From Gaiellales bacterium (GTDB lineage Bacteria > Actinomycetota > Thermoleophilia > Gaiellales > Gaiellaceae), in contig JBBRZN010000007.1 of the NCBI GenBank assembly GCA_038236705.1, positions 8,741 to 72,740 of the forward strand: a stretch of 64,000 bases of DNA, in the 5' to 3' direction. Shown here piece by piece: positions 1 to 23,577 of the stretch (position 1 is the stretch's first letter; every line of letters starts with the position of its first letter). The notes below the pieces were generated by a model. That model saw only the letters and a list, made by a program, of their open reading frames with translations. It was not told where the DNA came from and ran no database searches. The position numbers were made by a program, and so were the translations under genes.

Positions 1-272
1 CCGACCGTGGCCAGCACTCGCCTTCCCGCGCGGGCGGCCGCGTGCGCCCGGACGAACCGCCACGCGAGGCGGGCGAAGAGCAGCGCCACGCCCAGCTTCA
101 CCCCGGCGAGCAGGAACGGGTAGTAGTCGGCGCCCGAGTAGCTCGGAGTGGCCACGTGGCGACCGAAATCGAGGCGGTGGATCAGACTGCGGCCGGCAAG
201 CTCGGCCACGAGGGCGAGCAGCGCGAAGGCCAGTCCGGCCGACAGGCGCTGATGCCGCCTTGCTTGCTGCAT
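1..272 (-). CDS. hypothetical membrane protein, N-terminal part only (gene runs off left edge)
   Basis: Reverse-strand ATG at 272-270 opens MQQARRHQRLSAGLAFALLALVAELAG... It has hydrophobic helices, GC3-rich codons and no stop before position 1. It is absent from the ORF track because it is open-ended. Confidence 0.4.
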   Translation of the reverse strand, partial: MQQARRHQRLSAGLAFALLALVAELAGRSLIHRLDFGRHVATPSYSGADYYPFLLAGVKLGVALLFARLAWRFVRAHAAARAGRRVLATV

Positions 273-316
273 GTGCGCAGTGTGCCTAAGACGGCACAGG
301 TGATCAAACGGCCGGA

Positions 317-703
317 TCAGCCGAGGACGGTCAGATTCCAGCGCGGGCGGCACGGGCGATCGAAGCCCATCAGCAGGATCCGCTGCCACCGGCCGAGGCT
401 GAGCTCGCCGTCGCGGAAGGGAATCTGCTCGCTGCGCGGGCCGAGCAGCCCGCAGAGCAGCCGCTCCCGCTCGCGCTCCTCCTGGGGCACGAGGCGCGTG
501 AGCAGGTCCTCGAGATCCGAGAAAAAGCCGGTTTCACGTTCCTGCACCCGCACCAGAGCGACGTCGTCCAGCGGCGAGACGTAGGCGATCCCGCTCGCGT
601 GGCCCGCCCCTGCGAGCTCCCGCTTCACGTCGTTGGTGATGTCGAGCACAGTGAGCGACGGCAGCGCCGAGGCAATTGAGTACGGGACCTCGACGCTGGT
701 CAT
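317..703 (-). CDS. YjbQ/UPF0047 family protein (secondary thiamine-phosphate synthase-like)
   Basis: ORF 317..703. The segments LDITNDVKRE..GIAYVS..FRDGELSLGRWQRILLMGFD resemble the YjbQ family as I know it. Its ATG overlaps the ispH stop (ATGA at 700-703). Confidence 0.7.
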   Translation of the reverse strand: MTSVEVPYSIASALPSLTVLDITNDVKRELAGAGHASGIAYVSPLDDVALVRVQERETGFFSDLEDLLTRLVPQEERERERLLCGLLGPRSEQIPFRDGELSLGRWQRILLMGFDRPCRPRWNLTVLG

Positions 704-1638
704 GCGGTGGTCACTTCCCGCGGAAGGCGGAAGCTGACGTTCTCCCGGGCCACCTCGACCTCACCGAGCTCGTCGAAGCCGAAGGAGGCGAGGCTGCGCA
801 GGACGGCCGCGACGAGCTCCTCGGGAGTGGAGGCGCCCGCGGTCAGGCCGACCGTCTCGTGCCCGGCGAGCAGTTCGGGGTCGAGGCCGCTCTCGCCGTC
901 GATCAGCCGCGCGGTCGCTCCGTTGCGCTCTGCCACCTCCACGAGGCGGCGCGCGTTCGAGCTCGTCTCGGAGCCGATCACGAGGATCAGCGTCGCGCCG
1001 CCCTCCGCCAGCGCCTTGACCGCGTCCTGGCGGTTCTGGGTCGCATAGCAGATGTCGTCGGCGGCAGGCCGCTTCAGGTCGCCGAAGCGCTCTCCGAGCG
1101 CGTCCACGGTCTCGGCGACGTCGTCGAGCGAGAGCGTCGTCTGCGTGATCACCGCGATCGGCTTGCCGCCGGAGTCCAGCTTCGCCGCGTCCTCGGGCGA
1201 CTCGATCACGACCGTGTCCTCCGGCCGCTCGCCGCGGGTGCCGATCACCTCGACGTGATCGGCGTGGCCGACGAGCGCGACGAGGTGGCCGCTGTCGGCG
1301 TAACGCCGGGCCTCCGCGTGCACCTTCGAGACGAGCGGGCAGACCGCGTCCACCACGACGAGCCCGCGGCTCTCGCAGGTCTGCCGCACCGACGGCGCGA
1401 CGCCGTGCGCGGAGAGCACGCAGATCGCCCCGGGCGGAATCTCGTCCTCGTGGTCGACGAACACCGCGCCGAGCCGCTCGAGCCGCTTGACCACGTGGTC
1501 GTTGTGCACGATCTGGTGGCGGACGTAGACCGGCGCGCCGTGCTTCTCCAGCAGGATCTCCACGATCTCGATCGCGCGGTCGACTCCGGCGCAGAAGGAG
1601 CGAGGGGCGGCGAGGAGGACCTGGCCTACGAGGACCAC
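700..1638 (-). CDS. ispH: 4-hydroxy-3-methylbut-2-enyl diphosphate reductase
   Basis: The C-terminal 312 aa of ORF 700..2256 carry the three conserved Cys contexts: PRSFCAGVDRAIE, AVCPLVSKVH and ICYATQNRQ. GTG at 1638 is the likely start; the upstream part of the ORF is Arg/Pro-rich shadow sequence. Confidence 0.9.
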   Translation of the reverse strand: MVLVGQVLLAAPRSFCAGVDRAIEIVEILLEKHGAPVYVRHQIVHNDHVVKRLERLGAVFVDHEDEIPPGAICVLSAHGVAPSVRQTCESRGLVVVDAVCPLVSKVHAEARRYADSGHLVALVGHADHVEVIGTRGERPEDTVVIESPEDAAKLDSGGKPIAVITQTTLSLDDVAETVDALGERFGDLKRPAADDICYATQNRQDAVKALAEGGATLILVIGSETSSNARRLVEVAERNGATARLIDGESGLDPELLAGHETVGLTAGASTPEELVAAVLRSLASFGFDELGEVEVARENVSFRLPREVTTA

Positions 1639-2210
1639 CCCTTCGCCGCTGCGCCGAGCCGGTCGAGCGCGCGCTTCGCGTCGGAGGCGGCGCGGGCGAA
1701 GCCGCGAGGCTCTCGCGCGAAGGCGCGGACGAGGCCGGGCCAGTCGTAGGCGCCGGCCGGCTTCACCGAGTCGCAGATTCCGTGCAGCGTCCGCTCGGGG
1801 GTGTCGCTGACCGCCCGCAGGACGCCGCGCAGACGTCCGCTCCGGGCCAGCGGCCCGCTCTCGAGATCGACCGCGTCGGCGCCGGTCAGCTCGTGCAGCC
1901 GGCGGCGCTCGGCCGGGTCGTCCACGACCTCGTCGGAGGCAAGCATCGTCACGGCCTCTGCGCCCGGGACGCCGAGCGGCCCGCCCTCCCAGAGCACCGA
2001 GCCCTCCCGGTCCACCACCCGCGTCGCGTCGAGGACGGTGCCGGAGGCGAGGCCGTCGCGCAAGGCGCCGGCGAGGCCGAACGAGACGACAGGCCCCTCG
2101 GGCACGCCGTTCGCCGCGCCGAGCCCGACGAGTGCCGAGCGCGCACCGGCGCGGCGAGCGACCCGCCGCTCCGCCGTTGTGGCGCAGGCGAAGAGTGGGT
2201 CGGCGGGCAG
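1626..2210 (-). CDS. hpnG: hopanoid-associated phosphorylase HpnG (PNP/UDP family)
   Basis: The last ~195 aa of ORF 1626..3182 contain VVSFGLAGALRDGLASGTVL and ADAVDLESGP. The gene sits between hpnH and ispH, as in known hopanoid clusters. No ATG/GTG/TTG is in frame near the N-terminus, so CTG at 2210 is only a best guess. Confidence 0.6.
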   Translation of the reverse strand: MPADPLFACATTAERRVARRAGARSALVGLGAANGVPEGPVVSFGLAGALRDGLASGTVLDATRVVDREGSVLWEGGPLGVPGAEAVTMLASDEVVDDPAERRRLHELTGADAVDLESGPLARSGRLRGVLRAVSDTPERTLHGICDSVKPAGAYDWPGLVRAFAREPRGFARAASDAKRALDRLGAAAKGWSS

Positions 2211-2362
2211 CGTTGCCGGTTTCCGGGCGCGCGAAAAGCGAGCCAGGGGAGGACATAGGGAGTGCCCATGCTCCGTTGCATGGGCGCGACTGAGGACGCT
2301 GCCTGGCGAAGTCTTTGCAGCCGCACGGGAACCGGTGGACGTTGTTCGCCGGCCCACTGCTA
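2192..2362 (+). repeat. degenerate third copy (C) of the ~160-bp TIR/hairpin element
   Basis: The left end AGAGTGGGTCGGCGG matches AGAGGGGTTGGCGG of copy B. The core TAGGGAG-GCCCATGC/GCATGGGC hairpin-CGACTGAGGACGC lies at 2255-2299, with the same ~70-nt spacing from the left end as in copies A and B. The right end is poorly conserved. Confidence 0.45.
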
Positions 2363-3364
2363 CCCCGTCAGCGTCCACGCCGCGCTGCGCACGGTTTCCC
2401 TGACGCTGCCGGTCGCCTCGAAGGCTGCCGATGGCTCGAAGCCGGAATGGATCGCGCAGTGCTCGCAGCGCGCGTCGTTGCCGGGCCCGTACTCCTCCCA
2501 CTCGATCCCGTCCAGCAGCGCCTCGTAGGTCGGGAAGATCCCGTCGGTGAGCAGGTAGCACGGGCCTTTCCAGCCGTACGGGTTGCGCGTGATCGAGCCC
2601 CAGGGCGCGCAGGCGAGCTTGCGGTCGCCGGTCAGGAAGTCCTGGTAGATGGGGCTCGCCAGCCAGCGGTAGCCGTTCTGGCGCGCGGCCGACCGGATGA
2701 CGCGGAACTTCTCCTCGTGCTCGGCGCGCGTCATCGTCAGGTTCGGGTCGATCTGCGAGTACTGGTAGCCCGGCGCGACGAGCATCCCGTCGATCCCGAC
2801 ATCGTCCGTGAGGTAGCCCATCATCTCGACCACCTCGGCGGGATCGGTCTCCTTGAAGATCGTCGTGTTCGTGGTGACGCGGAAACCGGCTTCGCGCGCC
2901 TTGCGGATCGCGTCGACGGCGACGTCCCACAGGCCCGGGTAGTCGCAGATGTAGTCGTGGATCTCGCGCATCCCGTCGAGGTGCACGACGAAGGTCAGGC
3001 GCTTGTTCGGCTCGAAGACGTGCAGGAACTGCTCCAGTCGGAGCGCGTTGGTGCAGAGCTCGATCGTCTTGTTCAGCTCGAGGAACCCTGCGACCACCTC
3101 CTCGATGCCCTTGAAGACGAGCGGCTCGCCGCCGCAGATCGAGACGACGGGCGCCGGGCACTGCTCGCCGGCGTCGACGCACTCCTCGACCGAGAGGCGC
3201 GCCTTGTTCGACTCGTACTCCCGGATCTTCCCGCAGCCGATGCAGGCGATGTTGCAGGCGAGCGTCGGCTCGAGCATCAGGACGAGCGGGTACCGCTCGC
3301 CCTTGCGCTGCTGCTGCGTCACGTAGCGGGCGATCTGAACGGTGGGAGCGAGCGGAAACTTCAT
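2360..3364 (-). CDS. hpnH: adenosyl-hopene transferase, radical SAM
   Basis: ORF 2360..3364 has the CxxxCxxC motif (ACNIACIGC) and reads full length like HpnH. It lies immediately downstream of shc, with a 4-nt overlap at 3361-3364. Confidence 0.9.
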   Translation of the reverse strand: MKFPLAPTVQIARYVTQQQRKGERYPLVLMLEPTLACNIACIGCGKIREYESNKARLSVEECVDAGEQCPAPVVSICGGEPLVFKGIEEVVAGFLELNKTIELCTNALRLEQFLHVFEPNKRLTFVVHLDGMREIHDYICDYPGLWDVAVDAIRKAREAGFRVTTNTTIFKETDPAEVVEMMGYLTDDVGIDGMLVAPGYQYSQIDPNLTMTRAEHEEKFRVIRSAARQNGYRWLASPIYQDFLTGDRKLACAPWGSITRNPYGWKGPCYLLTDGIFPTYEALLDGIEWEEYGPGNDARCEHCAIHSGFEPSAAFEATGSVRETVRSAAWTLTG

Positions 3365-5151
3365 CGACTGAGCCTTTCTCGTAGACGGCCGAGAGCGAGC
3401 AGCGGGAAGTGGAGACGGTACAGGTGGTAGCGAATCATGAAATCAAGCGGGAAGCCTGTGCCGGTGAACTGCCGTTCCTCCCAGTCGCCGTTTTCCTGCT
3501 GTGCGTTGCAGAGCCACTCCGCGGCGCGCCGGGCGGGCCGGCACTCCGCCTCACCTGCAGCGACATAGGCTAGTAGCGCCCAGGCCGTTTGGGAAGGTGT
3601 GCTTTCGCCCCGGCCTCGAGAGGCGAGGTCCGAGTAGGAACGGATGTTCTCGCCGAAGCCGCCGTCCTCGTTCTGCACCGAGTCGAGCCACGCGACCGCG
3701 CGGCGCATCGCGGGGTGCCCGGGCTCGACCCCGCAGGCCTCAAGCGCGGGCAGCGCCGCCCCGGTGCCGTAGAGGTGGTTGACCCCCCAGCGCCCGAACC
3801 AGGAGCCGTTGGGCTCCTGCTCGGCCAGGAGCCACTCGAGCCCGCGGCGCACCTCGTCCTCGTAGCCGTGTTCCGGCGCCAGGGCCTCCAGCGCGTGGGC
3901 GGTGACGTCGGCGGTCGGCTCGTCGGTGACCTTGCCGAAGTCGCAGAACGGCAGCTTGTAGAGCCAGAAGGCCTCGTTGTCGACGTCGAAGGCGCCCCAG
4001 CCGCCGCTGCGCGATTGCATTCCGGCCGTCCAGGCGAGCCCCCGGTCGACTGCGTCGCGCCCGCGATGGGAGCGGCGCAGTACCAGCGCGACCACGGCCG
4101 TGTCGTCAACGTCCGGGTAGAGGTCGTTCTCGAACTCGAAGGCCCAGCCGCCGGGCGCGAGCTCCGGACGGCGGATCGCCCAGTCTCCCCGCACGGTGAC
4201 CTCCTCGTGCTCGAGCCACTCGGCTGCGCGTACGAGCGCGGGGTGCTCGGGGCCGAGGCCGGAGTCGCGCAGCGCCAGCACGGCGAGGCCCGTGTCCCAG
4301 ACCGGCGACTGGCAGGCCTCCGGGCGCAGGCGGTCGCCCTCGTCGATCACGAACCCCTCCCAGCCTTCGACGGCGCAGCGCAGAGTTTCGTCCTCGAAGC
4401 CGTGCCCGAGCGCGACCAGCATCAGGATCGACCAGACCCACGGCGGCTGGATCCCGCCCCACGAGCCGTCGGCCTCCTGATGCGCCCGCACCCAGCGCTC
4501 GGCCTCCCGCAGCGCGGCTCGCCGCAGGCCCGAGGGCCGCGGCGCGGGCTTGCTCTGTCCCGGGCACGCGCCGATCTCGCGCAAGTCGATCCGGGCGGGG
4601 CGCACCGGCCGCAGCGCGCGGCAGGCGGCGAGCGGGACGTACGTGCCCCGGGCCCAGCAGGAGAAGTCGTAGATGGAGAGTGGGGCACTTGGAGGAAGCA
4701 GGACCAGTTCGACGGGGATCGGCGTGATCCGCTGCCACGGCCACTGGCCGAGCAGGGCCAGGAAGCACTTGGTGAAGATGCGCGTGCATGCTATCCCGCC
4801 CTGCGAGCGGATGAAGTTCCGCGCCTTCTCGCCGGGATCCACACCGGCGAGCTTCAGCGCCGCGTAGGCCTCGACCGAGGTCGAGAGGTCGGGCGGCCCC
4901 TCGAACCAGATCGACCAGGTGCCGTCCTCGCGCTGCCGCGCCAGCAGCTCGTTCGCGATCTTGCGGTCGAGCTCGGGGCTGCGCAGGCCGAGGACGTGGT
5001 GCCAGAAGAGATGCTGCGCGATCATGGTCGCGTTCGACTCGAGCTCCCCGACCCAGTAGCCGTCGCCGTGCTGGAGCTCGAGCAGGCGCGCCGTGGCCGC
5101 GTCGATGACCCCGTCGAGGCGCGTCTCGATCCGTTCCGGCGCGATGGTCAA
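3361..5151 (-). CDS. shc: squalene-hopene cyclase
   Basis: The C-terminal 596 aa of ORF 3361..6189 show QHGDGYW, repeated QW-type motifs and the catalytic DxDD (YPDVDDTAVV). The TTG start at 5151 overlaps the hpnE stop (TTGA). Confidence 0.9.
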   Translation of the reverse strand: MTIAPERIETRLDGVIDAATARLLELQHGDGYWVGELESNATMIAQHLFWHHVLGLRSPELDRKIANELLARQREDGTWSIWFEGPPDLSTSVEAYAALKLAGVDPGEKARNFIRSQGGIACTRIFTKCFLALLGQWPWQRITPIPVELVLLPPSAPLSIYDFSCWARGTYVPLAACRALRPVRPARIDLREIGACPGQSKPAPRPSGLRRAALREAERWVRAHQEADGSWGGIQPPWVWSILMLVALGHGFEDETLRCAVEGWEGFVIDEGDRLRPEACQSPVWDTGLAVLALRDSGLGPEHPALVRAAEWLEHEEVTVRGDWAIRRPELAPGGWAFEFENDLYPDVDDTAVVALVLRRSHRGRDAVDRGLAWTAGMQSRSGGWGAFDVDNEAFWLYKLPFCDFGKVTDEPTADVTAHALEALAPEHGYEDEVRRGLEWLLAEQEPNGSWFGRWGVNHLYGTGAALPALEACGVEPGHPAMRRAVAWLDSVQNEDGGFGENIRSYSDLASRGRGESTPSQTAWALLAYVAAGEAECRPARRAAEWLCNAQQENGDWEERQFTGTGFPLDFMIRYHLYRLHFPLLALGRLRERLSR

Positions 5152-6374
5152 GCCGCCACCTCGTGCCGCGCCGCCTCGAGCGCCCGCGCGGCCGCGAGGC
5201 CGCTGCGAACCGCGCCCTCCATCGTCGGCGGCCAGCCCGTGCCTGTCCACGCGCCCGCGCGCGTGACGTTGGGCCTGGCCGTTTCCGGCCCCGGCCGGTG
5301 CGCCTCGCTGCCGGGCCGGACGGCGATCGTGGCCTCCGGCTCGCGGCTGACGCGCGACCAGAGCAGCTCCGCCGGGCCGAGCCGCTCGGTCACCGCGCCG
5401 GCGATCAGCTCGACGAGCTCGCGGCCGCGCAGGGCCTCGAGCTCCGGCGCGCCGCTCGAGACGACGGTCAGGTACTGGCCCGTCTCGGGCTCGTGGCCGG
5501 TCAGGCGCCCGCGGTCGAAGACCCAGTGCGCGGGGCTCTCGAGCAGCGCCGCGAGAGGGGGGCGCAGCAAACGGCGGTCGACGAGCAGGTGCACGCTGAC
5601 GATCGGCGAGTGACCGAGCTCCGGCTCCGGCTCGCCGAGCAGGCGCGCGCCCTCGGCCGGCGGGACGGCCACGATCACGGCCTCGGCGTCGAGCTCGGCC
5701 AGCTCGTCCACGCGGGTGCCGGTACGAACCCTCGCTCCCGCGGCCTCGAGCGCCCGCCCCGCCGCCTCGCCGTGCATCTCGCCGAGCGGCCGCGTGGGCA
5801 GGATCAGGTCGGAGGCGCGCTTGCCGGCCAGCAGCGCCGTCTCGACGGTGAAGCTCCCGGCGGCTGCGCTCGCCTCCTCGGCCGGGAGGTTCAGCGCCGG
5901 TCGGATGAAGACATCCCAGAAGCGGTCGATCGCCTGCTGCGACTGGCCGCGCGCCCGCAGCACCTCGGCGAACGTCGCCCCTTCGGCGTCGCCCCAGCGC
6001 GCGAGCGAGCGCAGGATCCGCAGCCGGCCCCCAAGCGGCACGTGCCGGTAGCGCAGGAGCGCGAGCGGCGAGGGGCGGATCACCGCGTTTCGACCGAGCT
6101 CGTCGATCACGCTCAGCGCCAGCGGCAGCCGCTGCACCGAGCCACTCTCGCCGATCCGCTCGAGAAACCGCAGGTACTCGGTGAAGCACCCGAGCGCGAT
6201 GTGCTGGCCGTTGTCGGGCGGCGGCTCGGGGTCGCCCTCGCGGCGAGGCAGCGTCTGCACCGCGCCGCCGAGGGTCGGGCGCGCCTCGTGCAGCGTCACC
6301 TCGTGACCCGCATCCACGAGCTCGAGCGCGGCGCTGAGCCCGGCCAGCCCGCCGCCGACGACCGCGGCTCTCAT
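5148..6374 (-). CDS. hpnE: hydroxysqualene dehydroxylase (FAD-dependent amine-oxidase family)
   Basis: Starts MRAAVVGGGLAGLSAALEL (GxGxxG dinucleotide fold). ATG at 6374 overlaps the hpnD stop (ATGA). Its position between hpnD and shc fits hpnE. Confidence 0.85.
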   Translation of the reverse strand: MRAAVVGGGLAGLSAALELVDAGHEVTLHEARPTLGGAVQTLPRREGDPEPPPDNGQHIALGCFTEYLRFLERIGESGSVQRLPLALSVIDELGRNAVIRPSPLALLRYRHVPLGGRLRILRSLARWGDAEGATFAEVLRARGQSQQAIDRFWDVFIRPALNLPAEEASAAAGSFTVETALLAGKRASDLILPTRPLGEMHGEAAGRALEAAGARVRTGTRVDELAELDAEAVIVAVPPAEGARLLGEPEPELGHSPIVSVHLLVDRRLLRPPLAALLESPAHWVFDRGRLTGHEPETGQYLTVVSSGAPELEALRGRELVELIAGAVTERLGPAELLWSRVSREPEATIAVRPGSEAHRPGPETARPNVTRAGAWTGTGWPPTMEGAVRSGLAAARALEAARHEVAA

Positions 6375-9968: not shown

Positions 9969-11150
9969 GTGCAGGGCCGCCGCGAAGTCCTCGCCGTCGG
10001 CCTCGTCTGGCTCGTCTGGCTCGGGGCCGTCCTCCTGACGGTTGCGGTCGGACTGGCCGCCGGCGCGTACACCTTGGCGCCGGGATGGTCGATCCACCGC
10101 GGGCTCTGGCCGCTCTTCGCGTGGGACTACAACTGGTACCACTTCGTCGCCTACGGCGGCTACCCGGACGCGCAGGGCGGCCGGCAGTACGCGTTCTTCC
10201 CCCTCTGGCCGCTGCTGCTCCGCTTGTCCGGCTCGATTCCAGACGTGGTCGCGGCCGCCGCGTTGGCGTGGGCGGGGAGCGCGGCGGCGTTCTTCGGCGT
10301 GGCAGAGGGCACGCCGCAGGCCCGGTTGCGGTCGGCGCTGGCGCTGGCCTGCTGGCCCGGTTCGTTCGTGCTCGCGGTGGCCTACCCCGACGCGGTCGCG
10401 CTCGCGGCGGCGGCCTGGGCAGCGGCGCTCGCGCTCCGGGGCCGGTTGCTCGCGGCGGGCCTCGTGGGCGCGGTCGCTGCGCTCGCCCGGCCGAGCGGCG
10501 TCCTGATCGCGCTGCCGCTCGCCTGGCTCGCCTGGGCCAAGGGGCCCCGCGCCTGGATCGGCGCGGCGGCTCCGGTCGCCGCGGCGGCCGCCGTAGAGGC
10601 GTACTTCTGGTCGCACAGCGACAACCCGAGGGTCTTCTTCGACGCTCAGCGCCAGTGGGGCCGCGGTGGGCCGGGCCGCTTCGGCGACTGGACCGGCCAC
10701 CTCCTCGACGTGCTCGAGCGCCACGGACTGCTGATCGCGCTGCTCGCCGTGGTCGTCGTGACCGCAATCGTGCTCGCCTGGCGGCGATTCGGCCTGTGGC
10801 CGACCGCGGCGATCGCCTACGCCTGCGCGGTCCCGCTCCTCCTCGCCGCGACGCAGAGCCTCGAGGGCTTCGTCGACAGCGTCCGCGCTGCACTCATCCT
10901 GCCGCTGCTCGCGGTGCTCTGGCGGCTTGGTCCTCGCTACCGGCCCTGGGCGGCCTTCGCGACGGTGGTCGTCGGCTTGCTGCTCCTCTCCGGAACGATG
11001 CAGAGCTTCGGCCGGCAGAGCCTGTTCGCGTTCCCGATCTTCTGGGCGATCGCGGAGGGGCCGCGCTGGCTGCGCTACCCGCCGCTGGCCGTGGTCGGCT
11101 TCGCCGGGAACCTCGGGCTCGCGCTGCTCCTCACGCGGTACGCCCCTTAG
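9969..11150 (+). CDS. integral membrane mannosyltransferase-like protein (PIG-V/GT-C type)
   Basis: 393 aa with about 10 hydrophobic segments and the N-terminal motif WDYNWYHFVAYGGY..YAFFPLWPLLLR, typical of PIG-V-like GT-C enzymes. GTG start. Confidence 0.65.
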   Translation: MQGRREVLAVGLVWLVWLGAVLLTVAVGLAAGAYTLAPGWSIHRGLWPLFAWDYNWYHFVAYGGYPDAQGGRQYAFFPLWPLLLRLSGSIPDVVAAAALAWAGSAAAFFGVAEGTPQARLRSALALACWPGSFVLAVAYPDAVALAAAAWAAALALRGRLLAAGLVGAVAALARPSGVLIALPLAWLAWAKGPRAWIGAAAPVAAAAAVEAYFWSHSDNPRVFFDAQRQWGRGGPGRFGDWTGHLLDVLERHGLLIALLAVVVVTAIVLAWRRFGLWPTAAIAYACAVPLLLAATQSLEGFVDSVRAALILPLLAVLWRLGPRYRPWAAFATVVVGLLLLSGTMQSFGRQSLFAFPIFWAIAEGPRWLRYPPLAVVGFAGNLGLALLLTRYAP

Positions 11151-11310
11151 AGGGCTTGGCGGAACCTCGCTCGTCCTCGGGGTGCTCTGCTCGTTCCGAG
11201 ACAGGGACGCAGGGAGTGCCGATAGCCGTAGCTATCGGTGCGACTGAGGACGCCGTATCGGGGCGGGCAGGGCGGCCCGAGGGCACAGACTAGGTTTCGT
11301 CAAGCCCTCT
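11149..11310 (+). repeat. ~160-bp TIR-bounded element with central covarying hairpin, copy A
   Basis: AGAGGGCTTGGCGGAA...TTTCGTCAAGCCCTCT are imperfect terminal inverted repeats. The core CAGGGAG-TGCCGATAGC/GCTATCGGTG-CGACTGAGGACGC lies at 11210-11254. The element aligns along its length to 22333-22493. Confidence 0.75.
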
Positions 11311-11848
11311 TGGCGCGCTCGCGATAGGCGGCGGCCGCGATGCGATCGGCGCAGAGCTGGCAGCAGTAGCGGCGGCTGCGGTTGCGGGAGCGATCGAGAT
11401 AGACGCAGCGGCAGGGGAGCGCGTCACAGACGCCGAAGCGCTCCCAGCCTTCGGTCTGGATTGCAACGAGCAGCGCTGCGGCGACCCGCGGCGCGAGCCG
11501 GTCGGCGAGGTCGCGCGCCCGCCGGGGCTCGTAGTCGAAGCGCCAGCCCTCCTTGCCGGGCCGGAGCTGAGGCACCGATTCGGCGAGCAGGTCGTTCAGG
11601 ATCTCGACGGCCTCGGCCTCGGTCTCGGCCTCGAAGACGCTGCGCACGCGTCGGCGCAACGAGCGCACGCGCTTGAGATCCCCTTCCGCGGCAACGCGCG
11701 CCTCCCGCTCGAGCCCGTGCTGCTCGAGGAACTCGCGCAGGTTGCCAACGCCGCTCAGGAACTCAGGCTCGTCGTCGAGGACGTCCCACGTGTTAACGAG
11801 GCCGACGGCCAGGTCGATCTCCCGCTGCTGCAGATTTCCACCGTTCAT
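11300..11848 (-). CDS. CGNR zinc-finger domain protein (ABATE + zf-CGNR)
   Basis: The C-terminal CDALPCRCVYLDRSRNRSRRYCCQLCADR matches the CGNR zinc-finger pattern. The last codons and the stop lie inside repeat A. Confidence 0.8.
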   Translation of the reverse strand: MNGGNLQQREIDLAVGLVNTWDVLDDEPEFLSGVGNLREFLEQHGLEREARVAAEGDLKRVRSLRRRVRSVFEAETEAEAVEILNDLLAESVPQLRPGKEGWRFDYEPRRARDLADRLAPRVAAALLVAIQTEGWERFGVCDALPCRCVYLDRSRNRSRRYCCQLCADRIAAAAYRERAKRA

Positions 11849-20467: not shown

Positions 20468-20540
20468 AGCCGACGCGCGGATTCGAACCGCGGACCCCTT
20501 CATTACGAGTGAAGTGCTCTACCAACTGAGCTACGTCGGC
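20468..20540 (-). tRNA. tRNA-Thr (anticodon CGT)
   Basis: The reverse complement GCCGACGTAGCTCAGTTGGTAGAGCACTTCACTCGTAATGAAGGGGTCCGCGGTTCGAATCCGCGCGTCGGCT folds as a cloverleaf with a 7-bp acceptor stem, anticodon loop CTCGTAA and T-loop GGTTCGAATCC. CCA is not encoded. Confidence 0.93.
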
Positions 20541-20590: not shown

Positions 20591-20959
20591 ATGCTCCGTC
20601 TCGTCGTCGCCTGGGCGATCAACGCGGCCGCGCTCTGGCTCGCCGACGCGCTCTTCGAGAGCGTTCGGATCGACGGCTGGAAGGCCTACCTGATCGGCGC
20701 CGCGGTGCTCGGGATCGCCAACGGGATCATCAAGCCGGTGCTCATGTTCCTGACCTTCCCGCTGATCGTGCTCACGCTCGGCGTGTTCATGCTCGTGATC
20801 AACATCGCGATGCTGGCGCTGGCCGAGTGGATCGCGCCCAACTTCGCGATCACCGGCTTCTGGAGCTACGTGGGCACCGTCGTGATCATCTGGCTCGTCA
20901 ACTGGGTCGCCCAAACGGCGCTCGACGCGCTCGAGAGCCCGCGCACGCGACTCGCCTAA
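20591..20959 (+). CDS. phage holin family IV / DUF360 membrane protein
   Basis: 122 aa with 4 TM segments and the motifs GAAVLGIANGIIKPVLMFLTFPLIVLTLGVFMLVINIAML. Confidence 0.75.
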   Translation: MLRLVVAWAINAAALWLADALFESVRIDGWKAYLIGAAVLGIANGIIKPVLMFLTFPLIVLTLGVFMLVINIAMLALAEWIAPNFAITGFWSYVGTVVIIWLVNWVAQTALDALESPRTRLA

Positions 20960-20977
20960 CGCACGCGACTCGCCTAA
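20942..20977 (+). repeat. perfect 18-bp tandem duplication CGCACGCGACTCGCCTAA x2
   Basis: Units at 20942-20959 and 20960-20977. The first unit is the last 18 nt, including the stop, of the holin-family gene. The second ends in the TAA that flanks the IS. Confidence 0.9.
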
Positions 20978-21049
20978 GAACTCATTTCTGAATTAAGGGA
21001 CCCGCCTGCTAGCGACGAAGCCATTGGCATCCGTCGTCAAGCTAAGGGG

Positions 21050-21870
21050 GTGCCGATGGCCGCCGCGCCGTGGATCGTCTCGGACGAGCTGTGGAATTTG
21101 GTCGAGTCGCTCTTGCCGAAGCGGGAACGCCGTTTTCGTTATCCGGGCCGCAAGCGCTTGCCCGATCGGCAAGCGTTGCAGGGGATTCTGTTTGTGCTCC
21201 ACACCGGGATCGCCTGGCAGCATCTGCCGGCCGAGCTCGGCTTCGGCTCAGGGGTGACGTGCTGGCGTCGCCTCGACGAGTGGCAACGGGCTGGCGTCTG
21301 GGGGCGGCTGCACCAGCTGCTGTTGACGCGGCTACAGGCCCCAGGCGAGCTCGAGTGGTCGAGGGCGATCGTCGACTCGAGCCAGGTGCAGGCGAAAAAG
21401 GGGGCGGCGAGACGGGCCCGAGCCCGGTCGACAGAGGCCGTCCTGGCTCCAAGCACCACCTCCTCGTCGACCAGAAGGGGATCCCGCTCGCCTTCGCTCT
21501 CATCGGCGCGAACCGCAACGATGTCACGCAGCTGATCCCGCTCGTCGACGCGGTGCCGGCGGTACGCGGCATGGTTGGCCGACCGCGTCGGCGGCCCCAA
21601 TGCGTGATCGCCGACCGCGGCTACGACCACGACAAGTACCGGAAGCTGCTCCGGAAGCGGGGGATCAAGCCGGTGATCGCCCGTCGCCAGACCCAGCACG
21701 GCTCCGGCTTGGGCCGCTACCGCTGGGTCGTTGAGCGCACTCGCCTGGCTGCACAACTTCAAGCGCCTGCTCGTCCGCTATGAGCGGCGCGCCGACATCC
21801 ACCGCGCCCTGCTCGGGCTCGCCTGCTGCCTTGTCTGCTTCCGCCGGCTCACGAACCTCACGCTCGGATG
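21050..21870 (+). CDS. IS5/IS427-type DDE transposase (orfA 21050-21535, orfB frame to 21783; -1 slippage at AAAAAG 21395-21400; extra frame disruption near 21737-21742)
   Basis: orfA reads WIVSDELWNLVESLLP..GIAWQHLPAELGFGSGVTCWRRL. orfB reads GPSPVDRGRPGSKHHLLVDQKGIPLAF..GANRNDV..IADRGYDHDKYR..RWVVERT. The expected tail AWLHNFKRLLVRYERRADIHRALLGLACCLVCFRRL is in a third frame ending at 21870. Confidence 0.8.
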
Positions 21871-21894
21871 AGGGCCTGGCGACCCAGCATGGGG

Positions 21895-22296
21895 CTATCC
21901 GTCGTGCGGCGAGGAGCCGTGGATCTGTACCAAGAGCCAGCGGCCGTCGCGCTTCTCGCAGACTGCGCTCATGCGATACGGGTGCTTCTCCTCACGCCCT
22001 TCCGCCGCCGCGGTCTCCGCCCCCTCCGCAAGAAGCCATCCCACTGCCCCCGCAGCAGAGACGTCACGGCGGTCCCAGGTCCAGGAGTACGTCGTCGTCC
22101 CCCGCGCGTAGCGATGAAGAAAGGCCCCCATCTCCTCGGGGCCGCGAAGAAGCGATTCCTCGGACGTGACCATCACGATGTCGGCATCCGGCGCGAAGAG
22201 CTGCATGACACCCTCGGCATCCCGCGCCGAGAACGCGGAGCAGAAACGCTCCAGGATCTCAAGCAACGCGGCCTCCGTCTCCACATCCGCCCTCAA
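21895..22296 (-). CDS. NTF2-like / SnoaL-like (DUF4440-type) protein, inside the IS
   Basis: 133 aa. LLEILERFCSAFSARDAEGVMQLFAPDADIV...GWLLAEG...RMSAVCEKRDGRWLLVQIH fits the NTF2-fold pattern. TTG start at 22296. Confidence 0.65.
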   Translation of the reverse strand: MRADVETEAALLEILERFCSAFSARDAEGVMQLFAPDADIVMVTSEESLLRGPEEMGAFLHRYARGTTTYSWTWDRRDVSAAGAVGWLLAEGAETAAAEGREEKHPYRMSAVCEKRDGRWLLVQIHGSSPHDG

Positions 22297-22332
22297 GACG
22301 AGGCATTCTCGCTCTTTCTGAAATGAGTTCTA

Positions 22333-22493
22333 AGAGGGGTTGGCGGAATACCGCTCGTCGCCGGGGCGCGATGGTCGTTCCGAGGCAAGGACGCAGGGAG
22401 CGTTCGTACCTGGAGTACGGGCGCGACTGAGGACGCGGCATCGGGGCGAGCAGCGCGTCCCGGCGGCTCAGCCGTTATTTCGTCAAGCCCTCT
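22333..22493 (+). repeat. ~160-bp TIR-bounded element with central covarying hairpin, copy B
   Basis: AGAGGGGTTGGCGGAA...TTTCGTCAAGCCCTCT termini, with core CAGGGAG-CGTTCGTAC/GTACGGGCG-CGACTGAGGACGC. Collinear with copy A. Confidence 0.75.
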
Positions 22494-23577
22494 TGTTAGG
22501 CCGCGAGAGGACACCGCTGAAGGCGCGGCGTAGCTCGATGAAGAGCGCTTCCAGCACGAGCGCCGGCGCGAGCTGGAACTCCTCGAAGGAGCGCCACGAC
22601 TCGCGTACCAGCTCGGCTGCGCGCTCGGCGCCCTCGAGCCGTTCGAGGTTGCCGTCCTCCTGCAGCGCCTCGGCCAGGTCGACGTGCACGAGCGCCTTGT
22701 CGGCACCCGCGGCGGCAGCGACCAGGTCGCGGTACCAGGATGCGAGCTCCTCCAGACAGGCCAGCAGCTCTTCCCGCTCGGCGCCGCGCCCGGCCCGGCG
22801 CACGCGCTGCTCGGCTTCGCGCGCAGTCAGGTCGAAGCCCTCGATCGCCGTCTCCTCCAGCTCCTTGGCCTCCGCTGCGCGCTTGCGCGCGCCCTCGAGG
22901 AGCAGCGCCGCGGCCTTCGCCGCATCGAAGCTCTCGGCCGCGTAGACCGAGCGCGCCGTCTCGAGCAACACCTCCCGCCGTTTGGCAGCCGCCGGATCCA
23001 GGAGCCGCTCGGCGCGGTCGAGCCGCCCGCTCGCCACGCGCGCGATCGAGGTCGCCTGCTCCACGGTCAGCTCCGGCGCGCGGGCCTGCACCGCTTCCCG
23101 CACCGCCCGCTCGGAGAGCCTGCGGAACGGAATCGCCTGGCAGCGCGAGCGGATCGTCTCCGCGAGCGAGCCCACCTCGTCGGCCACCAGCACGATCACC
23201 GCGTACTCTGGCGGCTCCTCGAGATCTTTTAGAAGCGCGTCGGCGGCCTCCTCGTTCAGCAGATGGGCGCCGAAGATGAGGTAGATGCGGCGGTCGGCCT
23301 CGAACGGGCGCATATGAAGGTCGCGGCGCAGCTCGCGCACCGCATCGATCCGGATCAGTTCGCCGAGCGGCTCGAGCACGTACAGATCGGGGTGCGAGCG
23401 GCGCTCGACGCGCGCATCGCCGCCGAGGAGCTCCGAGGCGAACGCGACCGCCGTCGCGCGCTTGCCGATTCCCGCCGGGCCGTGGAAGACGTAAGCGTGC
23501 GCCGGTCCGTCGGCGAGCGCGGCCGCGAGCAGGCGCTTGGCTTCGGCCTGCTCAGGAATGCTGTCGAAGCTCGCCAA
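22483..23577 (-). CDS. holB: DNA polymerase III delta-prime subunit
   Basis: AHAYVFHGPAGIGKRATAVAFA (Walker A-like), LEEPPEYAVIVL and IRSRCQ are present, with tmk immediately upstream. The last codons and the stop lie in repeat B. Confidence 0.85.
   Translation of the reverse strand: MASFDSIPEQAEAKRLLAAALADGPAHAYVFHGPAGIGKRATAVAFASELLGGDARVERRSHPDLYVLEPLGELIRIDAVRELRRDLHMRPFEADRRIYLIFGAHLLNEEAADALLKDLEEPPEYAVIVLVADEVGSLAETIRSRCQAIPFRRLSERAVREAVQARAPELTVEQATSIARVASGRLDRAERLLDPAAAKRREVLLETARSVYAAESFDAAKAAALLLEGARKRAAEAKELEETAIEGFDLTAREAEQRVRRAGRGAEREELLACLEELASWYRDLVAAAAGADKALVHVDLAEALQEDGNLERLEGAERAAELVRESWRSFEEFQLAPALVLEALFIELRRAFSGVLSRPNKRA

Follow-up and report, generated by a model that had tools for sequence, protein, structure and literature searches.

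Hairpin elements at stop codons of Thermoleophilia: a probable family of IS5-mobilized MITEs with a conserved apical core

Introduction

In the window, by which the whole 64-kb stretch of Gaiellaceae DNA analysed here is meant, two unrelated genes end in the same residues, Lys-Arg-Ala (K-R-A), and each takes this ending from a copy of the same repeated element. The question is how one element comes to lie exactly on stop codons and to supply the C-termini of unrelated proteins. An earlier note on this DNA had offered two answers: insertion into stop-codon contexts with rewriting of C-termini, or a role as a transcription terminator or insulator that acts in both directions where genes converge. 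The explanation preferred here, with a probability of roughly 0.7, is that the element is a non-autonomous palindromic MITE of about 165 bp, distributed throughout the Thermoleophilia and moved by IS5-family transposases into C-TNA-G or YTAG sites. Its movement is read from the comparison of sites between sequenced genomes, from which we infer transposition itself.

Element copies in the window and the genes that end in them

Copy A of the element (11147-11313) and copy B (22331-22499) both lie on the plus strand and are 77% identical over 167 nt, with a left-end 24-mer for which no chance match is expected. A covariance model search of the window returned exactly three copies, all on the plus strand: A, B (110 bits) and the divergent copy C (2194-2358; 69.5 bits). 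At copy A, the left junction ccTTAGAGGGC holds the stop (TAG, 11148-11150) of a 393-aa membrane protein gene (9969-11150, plus strand), the TTAG as a whole occupying 11147-11150. The product of this gene gave no Pfam match, and its former label, 'PIG-V-like', is thus without Pfam support. Facing it on the minus strand is an ABATE/zf-CGNR gene (11300-11848), assigned by its Pfam domains, whose stop (TCA on the plus strand, 11300-11302) lies inside the right arm of the element. At copy B, the left junction is a TAA (22331-22333); the hairpin extends to 22495 and is followed by TTAG (22496-22499), the counterpart of a CTAG at the empty site described below. The convergent genes here are a Phage_holin_4_2 family gene (Pfam; 20591-20959, plus strand; stop at 20957-20959) and holB, encoding DNA polymerase III delta' (DNA_pol3_delta2 domain; 22483-23577, minus strand). 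Read from the sequence, copies A and B thus adjoin or overlap the stops of convergent genes, as had been claimed.

The shared K-R-A ending was likewise confirmed, and both tails lie within the same right arm. The CGNR tail ...ERAKRA* is encoded by AAG AGG GCT TGA from the junction and right arm of copy A, and the holB tail ...RPNKRA*, with AAC AAG AGG GCT TGA as its last four codons and stop, comes from the junction and right arm of copy B; both are read from an identical 18-nt stretch of the arm, TTTCGTCAAGCCCTCTTG. For both genes to end in K-R-A, it is enough that the A and B arms go back to one ancestor, which gives them the shared sequence, and that both are entered in the same reading frame, for which the chance is 1 in 3.

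An insertion sequence (IS) separates the holin-family gene from copy B, and what had been stated about the sequence around it holds throughout. A TAA stands at the left end of copy B, and two units of 18 bp, cgcacgcgactcgcctaa, follow each other (20942-20959 and 20960-20977), each with the 3' end and the TAA of the holin-family gene. This exact tandem duplication (20942-20977) directly adjoins the left end of the IS. A tRNA gene (20468-20540, minus strand; 72.6 bits) closely precedes the holin-family gene and is separated from the IS by about 440 nt. The motif GTTAGGC after copy B (22496-22502) fits the R' consensus GTTRRRY of an integron attC site; it follows this copy of the element only, among housekeeping neighbours and with no cassette array, and the fit was judged a coincidence.

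Copy C sits between two minus-strand genes, with 1 nt between the base of its hairpin and the stop of the upstream gene (CTA, 2360-2362). Named from their translations, the surrounding genes presumably form a hopanoid cluster (window 1-6200, minus strand) that includes an HpnH-like radical-SAM gene (2360-3364), a squalene-hopene-cyclase-like gene (3361-6189) and HpnG-like and IspH-like genes. Copy C is antisense to all genes of this putative cluster.

Empty, filled and deleted sites

Related genomes allowed the sites of both copies to be compared in different states. A locus whose holB is 94% identical to that of the window (L121) has tmk, holB and the convergent holin gene but neither the element nor the IS. 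The stops of holB and the holin gene share one CTAG there (...ctcgccTAGccgac...), and the two genes overlap. The window has flanks like those of L121, with the element and the IS placed between ...ctcgccTAA and TTAGgccgcg.... Upstream, a difference of one base shifts the old stop out of frame, so that the holB of the window runs on through N-K-R-A to the TGA of the arm. HolB orthologues up to 95% identical end in ...RRAFSGVLAVG* or similar, and a K-R-A tail was found in none of 120 holB orthologues. The convergent junction of holB and the holin gene varies in other ways too, since three further loci (L122-L124, 4077-4496; holB 86% identical to that of the window) hold an extra 139-aa gene with no Pfam match between the two.

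The site of copy A is empty in three loci (L125-L127) with a CGNR gene 92% identical to that of the window. A single TTAG is present there (...cccctTAGaacgctcgcgg...), and the CGNR protein ends in ...ERSKGRSA*, its gene overlapping the 393-aa gene by 20 nt. In two others (L128 and L130) the hairpin is gone and TTA is joined to the final 9 nt of the arm on the right, AGCCCTCTT (a remnant of 9-11 nt). The CGNR tail of L128-L130 is still ...ERAKRA*, with TAA now as its stop (L129 was read from the protein only). L128 and L130 are thus deletion derivatives that kept a footprint of the arm and give no evidence for the arm as ancestral coding sequence.

These sites bear on two points of the earlier note. 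Its proposal of insertion at stop-codon contexts with C-terminal rewriting is supported by the empty sites of the window copies, which consist of one CTAG and one TTAG holding the stops, and with the different native C-termini found there (...SGVLAVG* in HolB, ...ERSKGRSA* in CGNR). It had also considered that K-R-A might be conserved coding sequence, shared by orthologues that lack the element. Such orthologues do exist (CGNR of L128-L130, ending in AKRA*), but only together with a remnant of the arm, which was seen in the DNA of L128 and L130, so that they do not refute the insertion.

Filled and empty states were also found side by side in the S10 ribosomal-protein operon, the genes of which were assigned by Pfam. 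The rplW-rplB spacer measures 166 nt when filled (L011) and 8-17 nt when empty (L007, L036 and L008); the rplB-rpsS spacer, about 170 nt when filled (L036) and 2 nt when empty (L007 and L011); and the rpsS-rplV spacer, 167 nt when filled (L007) and 5-12 nt when empty (L011 and L036). A 290-nt rpsS-rplV gap in L008 was considered as a further copy and turned out to be low-complexity coding sequence. By comparison of the window loci and these spacers, the element is shown to have been gained and lost at individual sites.

Distribution of the family

An exact-core scan, using one genome per species, identified at least 120 loci. Among those listed, nearly all came from Thermoleophilia MAGs, with titles naming Gaiellaceae, Gaiellales, Solirubrobacterales, Thermoleophilaceae, Thermoleophilia or unclassified Actinomycetota; one was labelled Acidobacteriota. 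Almost all of the listed copies are hairpins of 160-170 nt, and a shorter form of about 105 nt also occurs. The long form, at 162-168 bp, is too small for a transposase gene, and at least seven consecutive terminal pairs are present in 77 of its 83 copies. Three copies occur within the 64-kb window, single MAGs carry copies on several contigs, and extra copies were found within loci. In one locus (L020, 3522-3735, minus strand), two copies of the short form are arranged head to tail, with about 100 nt between them; tandem arrays therefore exist.

The proteins encoded next to the element are almost all unrelated to one another, 169 of 189 being singletons. A vertically conserved cis-regulatory RNA was rejected on this basis, as neighbours differ at nearly all loci and close relatives have empty sites. 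One locus (L005) resembles copy B, including ...TGTTAG, and was considered as its orthologue; its flanking genes are others, and the likeness belongs to a sub-lineage of the element. No copy was found on viral contigs, and carriage by phage is without support. A literature search retrieved no published description of this hairpin family of soil Thermoleophilia, which, together with its apical core, is new and previously undescribed.

Association with stop codons

Copies were oriented by the strand of the conserved core, and the coding frame on each flank was called by a local frame test. Among 81 classified copies, 44 lie between tandem genes in antisense, 20 between convergent genes, 14 between tandem genes in sense and three between divergent genes. 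The resulting ratio of tandem to convergent to divergent (58:20:3) is near the share of stop codons in each type of spacer (one, two and none respectively). In tandem spacers, the upstream stop lies no more than about 10 nt from the base of the hairpin in roughly 38 of 58 copies, while the distance to the downstream start varies. The preference for gene ends suspected from the window extends to about 100 copies of other species, in which stops cluster within about 10 nt of the base and TAG and TAA are enriched: abutting stops were TAG in 48 cases, TGA in 18 and TAA in 11, compared with 204, 264 and 52 in the background. The sites themselves are short, T-A-containing and palindrome-like (CTAG, TTAG or C-TNA-G) and carry gene stops. 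Judged over all copies compared, the stop-codon observation made at A and B is not special to these two copies; it is family-wide.

The ends of the element take part in this arrangement. Their consensus is (C/T)TAG...CTA(G/A), by which each end gives a TAG to the incoming gene. Where a start codon abuts the element, the junction reads TAATG, TGATG or TAGATG, the pattern expected if insertion had split and duplicated a stop-start overlap. The background stops were taken from long ORFs away from elements in the fetched Thermoleophilia loci, in which TAG makes up 39% (204 of 520). This share is high for an actinobacterial lineage with 70% GC. High TAG usage may both favour TAG-seeking elements and result from them.

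The following course of events is proposed. IS5-family DDE transposases would move the element in trans. In a tightly packed genome of 70% GC, targets of the T-N-A type outside reading frames would mostly be stop codons. Insertion there would be harmless and thus tolerated, because the duplicated target and the (C)TAG...CTA(G) ends of the element return a stop to each incoming gene, and insertions elsewhere would be purged by selection. Once the stop at a junction has decayed or is no longer in frame, the gene would read into the arm as far as the next in-frame stop. In the lineage of copies A and B, this would be a TGA at arm positions 8-10, and every gene that enters in this frame would end in K (from the junction)-R-A-stop. 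The original finding at A and B is largely explained by such a MITE family.

The second proposal of the earlier note, a bidirectional terminator or insulator between convergent genes, fared less well and is considered very unlikely. Very stable hairpins (-108 to -121 kcal/mol in the window) would suit it, as would the 20 of 81 classified copies in convergent position, which is above the share expected from general knowledge. However, 58 of the 81 copies lie between co-directional genes, including rpsS-rplV, rplW-rplB, nusG-rplK and atpD-atpC, where termination would be harmful. No run of four or more T follows the hairpins of copies A and B on either strand (CTCTTGTTAGG and CTCTTGGCGCG on plus, CTCTTAGAAC and CTCTAAGGGG on minus). 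Close relatives do without the element, and at their empty sites the convergent genes simply overlap. The depletion of the strongly folding orientation in operons could be a polar effect, as termination would cause; in operon mRNAs, the strand that folds strongly is underrepresented 3:1, a hint that this orientation carries a cost.

Insertion sequence at copy B and the IS5-family link

The IS next to copy B (20978-22330, plus strand) encodes a transposase with DUF4096 (E=7.7e-24) and DDE_Tnp_1 (E=1.3e-26) domains, by which it was placed in the IS5 family. Its insertion point is the TAA of copy B's left junction, and TAA flanks the IS on each side (20975-20977 and 22331-22333); the IS ends, GAACTCATTTC(T/A)GAA, match at 15 of 16 positions. 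The transposase region (about 21056-21870) contains the usual frameshift and one extra. Because of this second frameshift, near 21740, the present copy is probably inactive. At about 1.35 kb, the IS is longer than its relatives of about 0.9 kb, and the additional DNA encodes a SnoaL-like passenger protein (SnoaL_3/DUF4440-type; 21898-22296, minus strand) inside the inverted repeats. From metagenomes, 80 relatives of this IS were fetched, and inverted ends could be paired in 52, mostly about 0.9 kb apart. These relatives, of the two-ORF type of about 0.9 kb, presumably correspond to the IS1031/IS427-like groups of ISfinder.

The consensus of the 52 paired ends is (C)T[T/A]AG|A(A/G)CTC.TTTC.GAATGA. 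In part of the element family, the outer 20 nt or so are the terminal inverted repeats of this IS5-family group. When element ends were scored with the IS end profile, 38 of 166 exceeded the 99th percentile of the background, and the ends of two copies, AGAGCTCATTTCAGAATGA in L034 and AGAACTCGTTTCACAATGA in L041, are near-identical to IS ends. Copies A and B agree less well. By eye, their ends (AGAGGGCTTGGCGGAAT) match the consensus at 11-12 of 18 positions; profile scores of about -12 to +1 place most of these ends below the background 99th percentile (-3.2); and an IS with exactly the A/B ends was not found among the IS relatives. The poor match of the A and B ends speaks against the MITE explanation. 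The covariance model detected no core within IS copies; the core was present only in adjacent elements.

In two other loci (L170, 862-1140; L175, 1050-1297), an IS of the same group and a hairpin copy meet at one shared TAA, oriented to each other as in the window. Such neighbourhood suggests that the IS inserts preferentially at element junctions or that the two can move as a unit. It also fits a common T-N-A target that is recreated by each insertion.

Flanking repeats give a further, less clear indication. Exact repeats were found as TTA in four loci (L007, L012, L059 and L079) and TCA in one (L053), and CTAG is present on both flanks of many copies of the AGGAGGG type; IS5 has been reported to duplicate CTAG (PMC10379815). 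A permutation test for target duplication was weakly positive (about 1.6-2 SD), with 32 3-bp repeats compared with 25.9±3.7 and 16 4-bp repeats compared with 10.4±2.7. The weakness of this result is attributed to all flanks sharing the end motif and to CTAG being its own complement. It nevertheless counts against the MITE explanation, and the weak statistics are among the points in favour of a rival taken up in the next section.

Hairpin fold and conserved apical core

The element had been described as having terminal repeats. Inverted ends are indeed present, but they are not merely ends: the whole length of about 165 nt folds as one hairpin, with the arms paired from end to end. The predicted folding energy of copy B is -108.2 kcal/mol on the plus strand and -73.3 on the minus strand, and that of copy A -116.3 and -82.9 respectively. 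The plus strand folds better in both because 9-11 G:U pairs form on it, compared with 1-3 on the minus strand. At the apex lies a conserved core (plus strand; 22388-22436 in copy B, 11204-11253 in A and 2250-2299 in C), which consists of GGACryAGGGAG (AGGACGCAGGGAG in copy B), a small and variable apical hairpin and then GCGACTGAGGACGC. Only this central core is common to copy C and copies A and B; the arms of C are wholly different in sequence and still paired. The core strand was defined as the strand carrying GGACGCAGGGAG...GCGACYGAGGAC. The core was invariant in an alignment of 122 copies, partly as a matter of ascertainment, since 120 loci had been picked by the exact core pattern; in six further copies retrieved with the covariance model, it differs by one base only (U to C). 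The distances from core to ends are nearly constant, at about 57-58 and 60-61 nt.

The arms vary freely in sequence while their pairing is kept. In the alignment, 89.8% of stem cells are paired, compared with 28-49% for slid partners, and cells with double changes number 582, compared with 183±13 in shuffles. Pairs pass from CG to UG to UA and almost never through a C-A intermediate. Among the arm mismatches of 87 long copies, 517 are wobble-compatible on the core strand and 93 on the other; the bias towards G:U on the core strand is present in 85 of the 87 copies, the opposite bias in none, and the bias is the same in every gene context. Two oppositely oriented copies situated 0.4-2 kb from seed copies each fold better on their own core strand. 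A mutation bias from replication or transcription was therefore rejected as the source of the asymmetry, which changes neither with the gene context nor in neighbouring copies of opposite orientation. The G:U asymmetry reflects selection on the folding of one strand, always the core strand. GC skew in the window was too weak to give the direction of replication.

These features are poorly served by the MITE explanation, since DDE transposases act on double-stranded DNA, which leaves an invariant apex with variable ends unexplained; the one-strand folding constraint (517 compared with 93) and the constant arm length are not explained by DDE transposition either. They are what would be expected of mobilization as single-stranded DNA by an HUH/Y1 transposase, REPIN/RAYT- or IS200/IS605-like, which would recognize hairpin and core and insert beside YTAG, the likeness to IS5 ends being secondary. 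The single-strand signature in any gene context and in opposite copies 2 kb apart, the passage of pairs from CG to UA with hardly any C-A step, the invariant core with variable ends and the fixed arms of about 57 and 60 nt all fit it, and REPINs are likewise long hairpins with compensatory changes (PMC3116915). On the other side, the element is bounded by true terminal inverted repeats, and a subfamily carries those of a DDE IS; several copies have exact 3-bp TNA flanking repeats; and the junction triplet is common to IS and element. A tblastn search of about 1 Mb of loci and the window with IS200 TnpA and E. coli YafM, a weak test, returned no Y1-like match. Taken together, mobilization by an HUH/Y1 enzyme is considered decidedly improbable.

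A second alternative is that the core is an RNA module useful to the host at gene ends, such as a 3'-end stabilizer or a processing or protein-binding site on its tandem G-A loops, with mobility serving only for delivery. The core is kept across Thermoleophilia orders while the arms covary, the G:U bias is strand-specific, the tandem contexts are non-random (core strand antisense in 44, sense in 14), and copies are tolerated within ribosomal-protein and ATP-synthase operons. Against this, both window loci lack the element in the closest relatives, with no visible compensation, sites are almost never common to species, and the mRNA of most operon copies carries the complement of the conserved strand. 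Nor does the element belong to an Rfam family: a search of the window with Rfam 15 at gathering thresholds passed the tRNA alone. A plant miRNA precursor matched the element in a permissive search at 23 bits, far from its gathering score of 142, and the hairpin shape alone explains the match. A host-useful RNA module is considered unlikely.

Two further readings of the core were discarded. The motif CUGANGA recalls a hammerhead ribozyme, but its U is C in several copies and the three-way junction is absent. A coding hairpin as a general account is contradicted by core lengths of 45-49 nt that differ by non-multiples of three and by stops in many copies. In one locus (L116, 3664-3830), the strand opposite the core does contain an ORF between nusG and rplK, consisting of ATG, 54 codons and TAA. 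It begins right after the TAA of nusG and ends in TAATG, overlapping the start of rplK, and might couple translation from gene to gene across the element; copies in general do not show this pattern.

What the core does can be suggested only tentatively. With its two purine-rich internal loops containing tandem G-A/G-A, which fold on one strand only, it may be a functional single-stranded module, either a handle for mobilization that measures about 57-60 nt per arm or an RNA signal for protein binding or processing planted at gene ends; we regard this as possible, though doubtful.

Comparison with known mobile repeats

Several groups of small bacterial repeats resemble the element in part. The Correia (NEMIS) and ERIC sequences of Neisseria and enterobacteria are palindromic repeats of about 100-160 bp with TA-containing targets that are co-transcribed and fold in mRNA. 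The element is a palindromic repeat of similar size at TA-containing sites, but its sequence, host group and target are different, and it is conserved only at the apex whereas those are conserved over their full length. The MIRUs of mycobacteria are tandem direct repeats of 40-100 bp with small ORFs, located between operon genes with stop and start codons overlapping the ends of the repeat. The element similarly lies within operons on stop-start overlaps (the TAATG and TGATG junctions), but it is a hairpin with inverted ends instead of a tandem direct repeat.

IS-derived MITEs with filled and empty sites have been described in bacteria, for example Nezha/ISNpu3, and repeats are already known to extend the 3' ends of protein genes (PMC3184786). 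Like these, the element is small, has no transposase, folds into a stable hairpin over its full length, has IS-like ends in a subfamily and occupied and empty orthologous sites, and extends genes at their 3' ends. In contrast to these, its ends are its least conserved part and its apex is near invariant, its arms covary with a G:U bias on one strand, and it is almost always situated on a stop codon, core operons included. With the IS5 family, a subfamily of the element shares the terminal repeats AGA(A/G)CTC.TTTC.GAATGA and flanks of the T-N-A or CTAG type, but the element has no transposase and its internal core is unrelated to and absent from the IS.

REPINs are also long intergenic hairpins of about 100 nt or more with conserved motifs and compensatory stem changes, and they have been proposed to act as single strands (PMC3116915). 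Their conserved parts are two REP palindromes near the ends, whereas the element has one asymmetric apical core; moreover, no RAYT was found in the loci of about 1 Mb and the window with the two queries named above, and the ends of a subfamily of the element match a DDE IS. The element resembles REPINs and MIRUs and is a member of neither.

Significance

The family offers a clean case, open to checking, of a mobile element confined almost entirely to stop codons. The empty, filled and deleted states of its sites show stepwise how a transposon alters the C-termini of housekeeping proteins: HolB is lengthened by four residues, CGNR receives a different tail, and the new tail outlasts the transposon. 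Gene ends in Thermoleophilia MAGs can be called wrongly because of these elements, which take up entire intergenic gaps, those of ribosomal-protein operons included. A strand-specific conserved core within a freely varying hairpin is not accounted for by ordinary DDE transposition. If this core were an RNA signal, the spread of the element would rewire 3'-end formation and operon polarity across the Thermoleophilia.
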